Source: Escherichia phage N2. Taken from it: a stretch of DNA of 64,000 nucleotides. Each line of letters begins with the position of its first letter. The stretch's first letter is position 1. The stretch is from sequence record ON645936.1; one strand, written 5' to 3'. Both the position numbers and the translations under genes were made by a program. Shown in pieces: positions 7,039 through 8,443 of the stretch. Under the pieces are notes generated by a model. The model did no database searches. It saw only the letters and a program-made list of their open reading frames with translations, and was not told the origin of the DNA.

Positions 7039-7554
7039 TTAAAGCAAATCAACCATTTTAACAGTCGGCAAAACAATTTCTTCTTCGATATAAGCAAATT
7101 CTACATGTTCAACTACACGCAAGAAATCATATTCATAGTATTCAGAAGCATGACCAAGAATATCAATGAGGCCTTCAGATATCTTATTACCATTCACAAA
7201 GAATAAGTCAAATACACGTTCTTCATCTTCTTCAGATTTATTACCAAGGTCAACTTCTATATCAAAGACCTTTTTAATGAATTCTGGATAAAGTTGGTCT
7301 GAGAACAGTCCTTCAACCAAATATTCATATATAAAAAGCTCTTGCTCGCTGAACAAACCATTACCACAATAACGGTCAGCTTTAGTGCTAGAATGACGAC
7401 TCTTAAATTTCTTTAAAAGATATTTAAATTGTTGGAGCTCATGCTCTTCTACGCCAAACAGTGTTTTGGTTTTATAGTTGTCACCATCATTTTCGCAGGT
7501 AGTGACATCAATTACGTAGCCCTTAGGAATTGTGCTGCCTAAACGAATATACAT
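7039..7554 (-). CDS. Hypothetical acidic protein, early region
   Basis: 171 aa ORF between tRNA cluster and internal-protein genes. Confidence 0.55.
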   Translation of the reverse strand: MYIRLGSTIPKGYVIDVTTCENDGDNYKTKTLFGVEEHELQQFKYLLKKFKSRHSSTKADRYCGNGLFSEQELFIYEYLVEGLFSDQLYPEFIKKVFDIEVDLGNKSEEDEERVFDLFFVNGNKISEGLIDILGHASEYYEYDFLRVVEHVEFAYIEEEIVLPTVKMVDLL

Positions 7555-7844
7555 TTGCTCACCATGTTAATGTAAGTATATTTAATACATTCAAGACCCA
7601 AAGGATTCTTGAAAATATCATATTCAAGAGGACCTTTTTCTGTTTCAATAAAAAAATCAAAATTTACTGTGTTAAATTTACGGTCTTCCTTAACTAATTT
7701 AACCTGAGAAGATGAACGGTCAATGTAAACCTTTTCAACTTCAAAACATGATAAAATGCCATAATCATCAATCAAGGCTTTAGCCGCGTCTTGATCATAT
7801 TTATATCCATTTTCAATGGACGATACTTTCGCATAAAGAATCAT
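7539..7844 (-). CDS. Hypothetical protein, early region
   Basis: 101 aa ORF; start overlaps upstream ORF. Confidence 0.55.
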   Translation of the reverse strand: MILYAKVSSIENGYKYDQDAAKALIDDYGILSCFEVEKVYIDRSSSQVKLVKEDRKFNTVNFDFFIETEKGPLEYDIFKNPLGLECIKYTYINMVSKCIFV

Positions 7845-7846
7845 TA

Positions 7847-8257
7847 TTAACCTCTATCAACGATAGCATGAGTATGAGCATTTACAATTTGCCACCAGTC
7901 GAAACGATTGGAACCATAATCTGGTTTATTTTCATTTTCTTTAATGATATCACGTAGTTTATCTTCTGTTTCAGCATACGCAATTAAATCATCATATCCA
8001 CCGCAAGGATAATAATTATCACCTGCGAATAAAAGAAAATTTACCTTAGATGGATTTACGTAATAACAGTCTTTAGGATATTTAGTTCCTCTCCAATCAG
8101 TTACTTCAACATAACGGTAAGAAAATCCATTTTTGCTTTCAATCCAACTCCACGCTTCAAAAGGAGTATTAAAAACTTTATCAGGTATTAAATTACCTTC
8201 AAAATGAGAAGGATTTGCATAATCCCCAGCATAAACATAATATTCGTTAATACTCAT
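7847..8257 (-). CDS. Hypothetical protein, early region
   Basis: 136 aa ORF rich in Tyr/Trp; stop abuts next ORF. Confidence 0.55.
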   Translation of the reverse strand: MSINEYYVYAGDYANPSHFEGNLIPDKVFNTPFEAWSWIESKNGFSYRYVEVTDWRGTKYPKDCYYVNPSKVNFLLFAGDNYYPCGGYDDLIAYAETEDKLRDIIKENENKPDYGSNRFDWWQIVNAHTHAIVDRG

Positions 8258-8443
8258 TTATTCACCTTTAGAAATTTTATCCATAACAATAGCGATTAAA
8301 CCAATTAAAAATGCTACTACAAGTGAAAACACATTTTCTGCTGTAGTCAATAATCCGCATATAAATCCAACAAACATTGAAAAACTAAATGCAGAAGCAG
8401 AAATTGCAATAGCAACATTTCGAATTAATTCACAGCGTTTCAT
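8258..8443 (-). CDS. Small hydrophobic membrane protein
   Basis: 61 aa from ATG at 8443 with GAGGAG RBS; two TM-like segments; longer TTG-start form unlikely. Confidence 0.55.
   Translation of the reverse strand: MKRCELIRNVAIAISASAFSFSMFVGFICGLLTTAENVFSLVVAFLIGLIAIVMDKISKGE

Follow-up and report, generated by a model that had tools for sequence, protein, structure and literature searches.

Four small genes between tRNA-Gln and the internal-protein genes of Escherichia phage N2: T4 trna.2, trna.3 and trna.4 and a gene lost from T4

The four small genes located between tRNA-Gln and the internal-protein (IP) genes of Escherichia phage N2 are real genes under purifying selection. Three of them are already catalogued as trna.2, trna.3 and trna.4 of phage T4, and the fourth, here called ORF171, is a gene lost from T4. 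The sequence examined was a 64,000-nt window of this phage (ON645936.1), in which the block occupies positions 7039-8443 of the minus strand. As an explanation of the block as a whole we favor, with moderate confidence, a T-even tRNA unit that carries early accessory, host-takeover or counter-defence proteins. An anti-defence role of the four genes is plausible, and we infer a binding or counter-defence mode of action.

Gene identity, coding status and transcription

The ORF list contains four closely spaced minus-strand genes of 171, 101, 136 and 61 aa, flanked by tRNA-Gln (6879-6952) on one side and by Ip7 (8515-8823) and Ip9 (8884-9156) on the other, which agrees with the preliminary description in both packing and location. 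The TAA of trna.4 directly abuts the ATG of trna.3, trna.3 and trna.2 are separated by 2 nt, and trna.2 and ORF171 overlap by 16 nt. The features of the region are:

6879..6952, minus strand: tRNA-Gln, first gene of the downstream tRNA array, whose orientation the block shares
7022..7048, minus strand: MotA-type middle promoter, T4 PM2 equivalent (MotA box TGCTTTA 7046-7040; -10 TATTAT 7027-7022)
7039..7554, minus strand: ORF171, acidic protein of 171 aa, WENDGD family (phrog_2290, E 1.2e-63 over residues 1-170)
7059..7572, minus strand: segment present here and missing from T4, an indel of 514-515 bp that is almost exactly ORF171, with junction microhomology TAA[C/A]ATGGT
7539..7844, minus strand: trna.2 (T4 ORF4), acidic protein of 101 aa (phrog_2023, E 3e-48), with homologues that carry Pfam PF27001
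7798..7805, minus strand: late-promoter motif TATAAATA inside trna.2, T4 PL2 equivalent
7847..8257, minus strand: trna.3 (T4 ORF3), acidic protein of 136 aa with two alpha/beta halves (phrog_1411, E 8e-51)
8258..8443, minus strand: trna.4 (T4 ORF2), 61 aa with two predicted transmembrane helices (phrog_1692, E 6e-35)
8473..8502, minus strand: early promoter, T4 PE1 equivalent (-35 GTTTAC 8502-8497; TG 8481-8480; -10 TATTAT 8478-8473)

These ORFs had been regarded as unknown, which does not hold if it is taken to mean undescribed. T4 trna.4, trna.3 and trna.2 (locus tags T4p135, T4p134 and T4p133) were recorded in 1985 as ORF2, ORF3 and ORF4 of the T4 tRNA-region entry X03016.1. The proteins encoded here show full-length similarity to the corresponding orthologue groups, and their identities to the T4 proteins are 100%, 99.3% and ~90%, respectively. 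They are the same genes as in T4 apart from the tail of trna.2, downstream of which ORF171 lies in this phage; the C-terminal tail differs from the T4 form because of the ORF171 indel, giving a protein of 101 aa here and 95 aa in T4. ORF171 itself is annotated in RB32, T2 and RB69-type phages, its counterparts being RB32ORF135c (87% identity), T2_138 (98.8% identity) and the hypothetical proteins RB69ORF151c/44RRORF127c. The RB32 and T2 genes occupy the same site beside tRNA-Gln, and the absence of ORF171 from T4 is due to a 515-bp deletion. Gene order and position, from the IP locus to tRNA-Gln and downstream of PE1, are common to T4, RB32 and T2.

A coding signal, which had been named as a check, is present in all four genes. 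When compared with the RB32, T2 and T4 orthologues, dN/dS was 0.08-0.20 for ORF171, 0.09-0.21 for trna.2, 0.06-0.11 for trna.3 and 0.00 for trna.4 (at dS ~0.10-0.13), that is, 0.00-0.21 across the block. Coding status is considered real because of these values and because Trna.2 and Trna.3 protein and trna.4 RNA are produced early in T4.

The PE1 (early), PL2 (late) and PM2 (middle) motifs of X03016.1 are all conserved here. The PE1-like site upstream of trna.4 has an 18-nt spacer containing the TG and aligns with PE1 of X03016.1, and the PL2 and PM2 equivalents are found at the sites homologous to those of that record. The MotA box of the PM2 equivalent overlaps the ORF171 stop codon, and this segment is kept in T4 despite the ORF171 deletion. 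The T-even tRNA transcription unit would have this block as its protein-coding 5' part. Transcription from PE1 would proceed through trna.4, trna.3, trna.2 and ORF171 (extra in this phage) and then into the tRNA array, with later entry points at the late promoter within trna.2 and at the MotA-dependent middle promoter at the ORF171 stop, the latter probably driving the tRNA cluster. The early expression that had been proposed is supported by the T4 orthologues, for which early timing is documented in both RNA and protein for trna.2 and trna.3 and in RNA for trna.4 (PMC9697503 supplement).

Conservation and variability within and around the block

The block had also been placed in a segment said to be hypervariable, which does not describe these genes. 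While trna.2, trna.3 and trna.4 are each found in ~770-800 phage records and are near-universal in Tequatrovirus, the variability of the interval is that of the IP cassette array upstream of 8462-8510. This array is bounded by a thrice-repeated promoter cassette of ~49 nt (9182-9230, 8843-8891 and 8462-8510), the last copy of which contains the PE1 equivalent, so the cassette that flanks Ip7 and Ip9 in the manner of T-even IP cassettes or "PeSL" modules also carries the promoter ahead of trna.4. According to one proposal, such promoter-cassette repeats promote the exchange of cassettes in hyperplastic regions of T4-type phages (PMC4122927). However, unlike the T-even IP cassettes, the four block ORFs are not exchanged as cassettes. 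Ip7 and Ip9 start with MKTFKEFINEA, whereas none of the four block proteins has such a leader or the capsid-targeting MKT(F/Y)xEF(I)xE signal, cleaved by the prohead protease, of T-even injected proteins.

Comparison with other T4-like genomes thus gave a mixed outcome with regard to variability. The presence of ORF171 and trna.3 does vary, but trna.2, trna.3 and trna.4 are near-universal, and variation within the block is confined to the presence or absence of ORF171 (missing from T4) and of trna.3 (missing from T2) and to the N-terminal half of trna.3. In the latter protein, residues 1-72 are hypervariable, with identity dropping to ~25%, and residues 73-136 are conserved at 70-89% identity and carry the signature NFLLFAGDNYYPxGGYxDL...FDWWQIV. 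Overall, the four genes are kept in ~550-800 phage records belonging to several genera.

The most conserved product is that of trna.4, which is 100% identical to the T4, T2 and RB32 copies. The gene was found in 790 phage records, and in 428 of these the protein is at least 99% identical. The ORF list gives it as a 74-aa ORF starting at a GTG (8258-8482), in which an internal ATG at 8443 yields the 61-aa product; GAGGAG is located at 8456-8451, 7 nt ahead of this ATG. The product is strongly hydrophobic (GRAVY 1.22), with TTAEN between the two hydrophobic stretches. The preliminary description of it holds: a small membrane protein of two helices, preceded by an early promoter of its own and with GAGGAG as ribosome-binding site. 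Its likeness to small phage inner-membrane effectors is one of topology alone, two predicted hydrophobic helices, and Pfam, PHROG and NCBIfam gave no family match to effectors of the holin, antiholin or superinfection-exclusion type. The other three proteins are soluble and lack membrane or secretion signals in their sequences.

The earlier statement that the four proteins have no recognizable motif agrees with our searches. Pfam and NCBIfam scans gave no match above noise for any of the four, no PADLOC family of defence-system components matched any of them at E <= 1, and PDB sequence-profile searches with ORF171 (two alignments), trna.3 and trna.2 gave no credible match. The only PDB match of ORF171 with E <0.001 paired its acidic stretch with penicillin-binding protein 2 (E 1.4e-4); it was sub-threshold and not considered credible.

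The ORF171 (WENDGD) family and its tRNA neighborhood

ORF171 belongs to a family of single-domain proteins of ~130-190 aa that, judged by sequence searches, is large and phage-only. The protein matches the family profile over its full length, each of 40 diverse relatives also matches phrog_2290, and 817 diverged representatives were collected at E <= 1e-3 from a library of 50%-identity clusters. Only two matches were found in bacteria, across genomes of 185,579 species, and both were on MAG contigs. The family signature consists of G12-Y13, W20-E-N-D-G-D25, G64-N65, Y140 and F144-x-R146. ORF171 has every one of these residues save W20, which is replaced by Cys (TGC, compared to TGG in T2). This Trp is present in 97% of the wider family, but 7 of 18 aligned T-even-type sequences have C, Y, L or G in its place.

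The AlphaFold2 model of ORF171 (pLDDT 87, pTM 0.81) predicts a hairpin followed by a helical bundle. A HAD-like DxD reading of the ENDGD stretch was dropped, as this predicted fold is not Rossmann-like. Foldseek against viral models returned uncharacterized phage proteins alone. Fold searches with ORF171 and trna.3, which had been named as another check, detected no known fold and no likeness above noise to known anti-defence proteins, and the literature surveyed contained nothing relevant on ORF171 or the WENDGD family, with no member of described function.

It is conceivable, but in our view improbable, that ORF171 and possibly its neighbors serve the phage tRNAs through maturation, modification, charging, stabilization or inhibition of host tRNA-targeting nucleases. 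A WENDGD gene lies at most 4 kb from tRNA genes in 35 of 80 viral loci, every time on the same strand, although this count is inflated by inherited synteny, as the T4 superfamily supplies many of the positive loci. By clusters of 40% identity, a tRNA is found within 4 kb in 17 of 28 and within 1 kb in 11 of 28, compared to a naive expectation of ~6-8% derived from the tRNA-region sizes of this window and of Klebsiella phage 311F; these proximity counts are uncorrected for the general tendency of small accessory ORFs to gather in the tRNA regions of large phages. Contigs of 97, 139, 184, 200 and 307-378 kb and a 43-kb MAG contig are represented among the loci, and in Jiaodavirus the WENDGD-family gene is located between tRNA-Met and tRNA-Arg. 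tRNAs are the sole context common across lineages: recurrent protein neighbors were sought in the 80 viral loci, and none was found beyond T4 core genes. In addition, the near-invariant polar residues E21, N22, D23, D25, N65 and R146 would be compatible with a ligand or metal site. On the other hand, a nearby tRNA is missing from over half of the family loci, and T4, which lacks ORF171, still makes functional tRNAs, as is well established. Fold searches with ORF171 gave neither a nuclease-like nor an RNA-binding fold, and ORF171 is an acidic protein with a pI of 4.6.

Taken as a family, ORF171 and its relatives, marked by the signature G-Y...W-E-N-D-G-D...G-N...F-x-R-V, might form an uncharacterized, phage-exclusive group that is functionally coupled to tRNA arrays in T4-like and jumbo phages, a proposal to which we attach a rather low probability. 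If such coupling existed, ORF171 could protect or complete phage tRNAs against host tRNA-targeting defences. Equally, it could be a sensed trigger, and the recurrent changes of Trp20 to C, Y, L or G in E. coli phages could be escape variants.

Counter-defence and competing explanations

Host takeover or counter-defence by early accessory proteins is the explanation that we favor. The four products would be small accessory proteins rather than core machinery: early, dispensable on laboratory E. coli and phage-restricted. They most likely would act by binding host or other phage-related components and not as enzymes of phage replication. The trna.4 product would act at the inner membrane. The trna.3 product may pair a fast-diverging N-terminal module, used for recognition, with a conserved C-terminal one, the defence protein DRT1 could be a partner of Trna.2, and ORF171 belongs to a large family whose genes would be transcribed together with phage tRNA arrays.

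Accessory status is suggested by the dispensability of three of the genes in T4 and by the absence of ORF171 from T4 and of trna.3 from T2. In the HIDEN-SEQ supplement, T4 trna.2, trna.3 and trna.4 are listed as non-essential, with 92-97.5% of TA sites hit. The N-terminal divergence of trna.3 and the Trp20 replacements of ORF171 resemble arms-race signatures at the sequence level. The single direct hint toward an anti-defence function comes from a 2026 DRT1 pulldown, in which Trna.2 and Inh were the sole T4 proteins enriched with wild-type DRT1 compared to an RT-knockout control (PMC13275509). Enrichment of Trna.2 could also reflect its abundance or stickiness.

Proven counter-defence genes are found nearby, namely 57B/Acb1 (anti-CBASS) and the injected internal proteins, with IPI* (anti-GmrSD) (PMC9117128). 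The block ORFs share with Acb1 and IPI* the neighborhood, the small size and the dispensability on K-12. However, the block products are early and predicted to be cytoplasmic or membrane proteins, unlike the IPs, which are virion proteins that are injected, and Acb1, which is a 2H phosphoesterase. Profile and fold searches found no similarity of sequence or fold to 57B/Acb1 or IPI*. Likewise, the fold searches with ORF171 and trna.3 detected no shared fold with anti-defence proteins in the PDB (anti-CRISPRs, Ocr/ArdA-type DNA mimics, p56, Acb1 and others). An acidic, small protein located near counter-defence genes is a weak and non-specific indicator, and near-invariance such as that of trna.4 is usually atypical for an arms-race gene. 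No anti-defence or takeover phenotype of any of the four genes was reported in the literature surveyed. In one HIDEN-SEQ comparison table, T4 trna.2, trna.3 and trna.4 have an adjusted p of 1.0, and none of the three is among the hits named in the main text of that study.

A role in phage-phage competition or envelope control, for example in superinfection exclusion, in lysis timing or in keeping out co-infecting relatives, seems quite unlikely; trna.4 would then be the membrane effector. The trna.4 protein is early, very highly conserved and a predicted two-helix membrane protein, and the small envelope proteins Imm, Sp and rI of T4 resemble it in size, timing and topology. The segB homing endonuclease region, responsible for marker exclusion among T-even phages (PMC2330249), also lies next to the block. 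However, Pfam, PHROG and NCBIfam scans showed no sequence similarity of trna.4 to such envelope proteins, no phenotype of this kind has been reported, and the three remaining proteins of the block are soluble.

That the four ORFs are functionless passengers in a transcribed tRNA-operon leader, or hitch-hike with selfish or selected elements, is very improbable and largely refuted by the substitution pattern: even if the genes are dispensable in the laboratory, T4 and T2 have each lost one at no obvious cost and the ORF171 copy here is substituted at a highly conserved Trp, this explanation is opposed by strong purifying selection (with zero amino-acid changes in trna.4 at dS ~0.1), by retention in so many phage records, by detection of Trna.2 and Trna.3 in T4 infection and by the invariant motif of the diverged ORF171 family.

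As a finding, the block is the re-discovery of catalogued genes of the best-studied phage and adds little by itself. What it exposes is a gap: trna.2, trna.3, trna.4 and the ORF171 family are still functionally uncharacterized 40 years after sequencing, even though they are expressed early, conserved under selection and located next to proven counter-defence genes. Three leads make this gap easier to address: the enrichment of Trna.2 in the DRT1 pulldown, the hypervariability of one module of trna.3 and a WENDGD family repeatedly embedded in phage tRNA arrays. This embedding, which extends to distant jumbo phages, is relevant to the current debate over why phages carry tRNAs.

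Identity and layout of the block

The window is a genome segment of a T-even (Tequatrovirus) phage, and the identity and architecture of its block of four minus-strand genes (trna.4, trna.3, trna.2 and ORF171 in transcription order) are near certain. The block is bounded by tRNA-Gln on one side and by the internal-protein (IP) gene Ip7 on the other, where Ip9 and, further upstream, 57B, 57A and gene 1 also lie.

Features of the block and its flanks (block genes from the ORF list; promoter motifs conserved from X03016.1)
6879-6952: tRNA-Gln, bounding the block on one side
7039-7554, minus: ORF171, 171 aa
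7539-7844, minus: trna.2, 101 aa
7847-8257, minus: trna.3, 136 aa
8258-8482, minus: trna.4 ORF, with ATG at 8443 giving 61 aa
8515-8823: Ip7, internal-protein gene, bounding the block on the other side
8884-9156: Ip9, internal-protein gene, same side as Ip7
8502-8473, minus: early promoter PE1; -35 GTTTAC 8502-8497, TG 8481-8480, -10 TATTAT 8478-8473
7805-7798, minus: late promoter PL2; TATAAATA
7048-7022, minus: middle promoter PM2; MotA box TGCTTTA 7046-7040, -10 TATTAT 7027-7022

Checked against the ORF list and junction sequences, the coordinates, lengths and tight packing of the four ORFs in the preliminary description were correct. A Shine-Dalgarno-like sequence precedes every ORF, and the successive junctions (TAA-ATG, a 2-nt gap and a 16-nt overlap) represent packing of the coupled-translation type. 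Relative to the RB32, T2 and T4 orthologues, dN/dS was 0.08-0.20 for ORF171, 0.09-0.21 for trna.2, 0.06-0.11 for trna.3 and 0.00 for trna.4, which had zero amino-acid changes at a dS of ~0.10-0.13. Judged by these ratios (0.00-0.21), all four ORFs are real genes, and their coding status is confirmed.

The genes had been described as unknown, but they are already known and named. According to annotated records, the block comprises T4 trna.4, trna.3 and trna.2, present as ORF2, ORF3 and ORF4 in the 1985 T4 tRNA-region record (X03016.1), plus one additional gene, ORF171, whose counterparts are RB32ORF135c and T2_138 (type RB69ORF151c; phrog_2290 match, E 1e-63). DNA similarity searches with the locus matched ~700-980 T-even-type phage records, including RB32/RB33 (93.9% over the full length of a 2-kb query) and T2 (96.4% over 79% of it). 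None of the matched records had high identity across the whole locus, which is therefore a mosaic.

Variability of the block and of the internal-protein array

In tblastn searches of 50,697 phage records, trna.2 had matches in 803, trna.4 in 790 (428 of them at 99% identity or more), trna.3 in 767 and ORF171 in 549. With such wide occurrence the block does not form the interval's hypervariable part, which is the IP array; the earlier claim of a hypervariable locus fits the neighbouring IP cassettes and not these genes. The array contains Ip7 and Ip9 in the window, ipI in T4, Ip7, Ip9 and Ip5 in RB32, and ip7 and ip5 in T2. Three copies of a ~49-nt early-promoter cassette, before trna.4 (8462-8510), Ip7 (8843-8891) and Ip9 (9182-9230), flank the array; a role in cassette shuffling has been proposed for this type of repeat (PMC4122927). 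In both IP genes, a 42-nt repeat (98% identical; 8792-8833 and 9125-9166) spans the start of the leader peptide together with the ribosome-binding site, and the variable array is bounded by the ~49-nt and 42-nt repeats.

Within the block, variation amounts to three things only: loss of ORF171 (T4), loss of trna.3 (T2) and a striking division within trna.3. Between allele classes, identity drops to 21-29% in the N-terminal half of trna.3 (residues 1-72) and is still 70-89% in the C-terminal half (73-136), which contains the signature NFLLFAGDNYYPxGGYxDL...FDWWQIV. Alignment with T4 places the missing ORF171 in a 514-515-bp indel (window 7059-7572), because of which the T4 trna.2 tail is different and shorter. 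The indel junctions share the microhomology TAA[C/A]ATGGT. T4 retains the final ~25 nt of ORF171; these are exactly the PM2 MotA box, and the stop codon of ORF171 overlaps it. The T4 arrangement looks like a clean deletion between the microhomologies that spared this box.

Possible association with tRNA arrays

X03016.1 annotates early promoter PE1 before ORF2, a late -10 (PL2) within ORF4 and middle promoter PM2 immediately before tRNA-Gln. All three motifs are conserved in the window, which points to the block as the protein-coding 5' portion of a transcription unit that includes the tRNAs. The four genes are co-oriented with the tRNA array and, from the conserved motifs and the 1985 annotation, are probably co-transcribed with it.

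Searching 1.84 billion representative proteins by profile returned 817 relatives of ORF171 at E <= 1e-3, of which 265 reach E <= 1e-10. The best 150 of the 817 are nearly all single-domain proteins of ~130-220 aa, and 40 of 40 diverse relatives tested belong to phrog_2290, the WENDGD family. Near-invariant positions are G12-Y13, W20-E21-N22-D23-(G24)-D25, Y27, G34, F50, G64-N65, Y140 and F144-x-R146-V. The confident AlphaFold2 model of ORF171 (pLDDT 87, pTM 0.81) predicts a long beta-hairpin (12-35) with WENDGD at its tip, a helical bundle and a C-terminal strand. Codon 20 (7495-7497) encodes Cys (TGC) here versus Trp (TGG) in T2; across the wider family 97% have Trp at this position, and several T-even-type relatives have L, G or Y there, which suggests relaxed constraint or recurrent selection on one residue. 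With 99 confirmed stretches in viral contigs and only two in bacteria, both on MAG contigs (185,579 species, one genome each), the family is essentially phage-only.

Within 4 kb of the gene, 35 of 80 viral family loci have tRNA genes, invariably on the same strand. Grouping the proteins at 40% identity left 28 clusters: a tRNA lies no more than 4 kb away in 17 of them and no more than 1 kb away in 11. A naive expectation of ~6-8% follows from the extent of the tRNA array in the window (positions 5.6-6.95 kb) and from Klebsiella phage 311F, whose family gene lies inside a 4.5-kb tRNA array in a 167-kb genome. Since small ORFs accumulate in tRNA regions generally and many tRNA-positive loci come from the T4 superfamily, this association is a lead and not a result. 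Contigs of 97, 139, 184, 200 and 307-378 kb are among the tRNA-positive loci, a 6-tRNA array lies 1.8 kb upstream of the gene in one of the two MAG matches, and no protein-coding neighbour recurs across lineages. A tRNA-directed function of ORF171, to which the association would lend itself, is unlikely in our estimation.

In phages far from T4, jumbo phages and a 43-kb MAG contig among them, the family gene also occurs in or beside same-strand tRNA arrays (L020, L028, L040 and L081, on 355-378 kb contigs; L036, L072/L073, L074, L082 and L087); at L082 it adjoins a tmRNA-like gene. In the window, ARAGORN reports a 94-nt 'tRNA-Lys(ttt)' (5331-5424, minus) that falls below threshold with the Rfam tRNA model and matches the position of rnaC and rnaD, two small stable RNAs of T4; the site may encode a stable RNA that resembles a tRNA and not a true tRNA. 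Inside the tRNA array lies a gene for a GIY-YIG homing endonuclease of segB type (221 aa, 5677-6342), which T4 and RB32 also have there and T2 does not; past the array is a 91-aa ORF of phrog_2678 (4783-5058).

Possible modes of action

No function was found by homology for the four proteins. As the preliminary description had noted, no motif is recognisable: Pfam, NCBIfam and PADLOC searches were empty. Homologues of trna.3 and trna.2 (P0021-P0083) bear the precomputed accessions PF26894 and PF27001, both missing from the Pfam set searched, so newer releases already define these families. Foldseek against viral models matched uncharacterised phage proteins only, and PDB sequence-profile searches gave no credible match. 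The trna.3 model has two alpha/beta modules (pLDDT 78, pTM 0.46).

Early expression, also proposed before, is borne out by the T4 orthologues: Trna.2 and Trna.3 are early by RNA and protein, and trna.4 is early by RNA, its protein being undetected (PMC9697503 supplement). In HIDEN-SEQ transposon mutagenesis, insertions reached 92-97.5% of the TA sites in T4 trna.2, trna.3 and trna.4, and all three genes are classed as non-essential, with adjusted p = 1.0 in one comparison table and no conditional phenotype given in the main text. The four block proteins are accessory, early, dispensable and phage-restricted. In a study of the defence system DRT1, Trna.2 and Inh were the sole T4 proteins significantly enriched with the wild type versus the reverse-transcriptase knockout (PMC13275509, 2026), and the authors did not take this finding further.

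Envelope or phage-competition roles, with trna.4 at their centre, seem improbable, and functionless passengers, contradicted by the selection pattern, are very improbable. The best overall explanation, a transcription unit whose products act by binding, is in our view somewhat probable, with the binding or counter-defence mode itself evenly balanced; the anti-defence idea advanced earlier is a reasonable hypothesis. The proteins would bind host or rival components rather than catalyse steps of phage replication, trna.4 doing so at the inner membrane and trna.3 through a conserved module coupled with a diversifying recognition module; trna.2 may have DRT1 as a target, and ORF171 may act in some link with the tRNA array.
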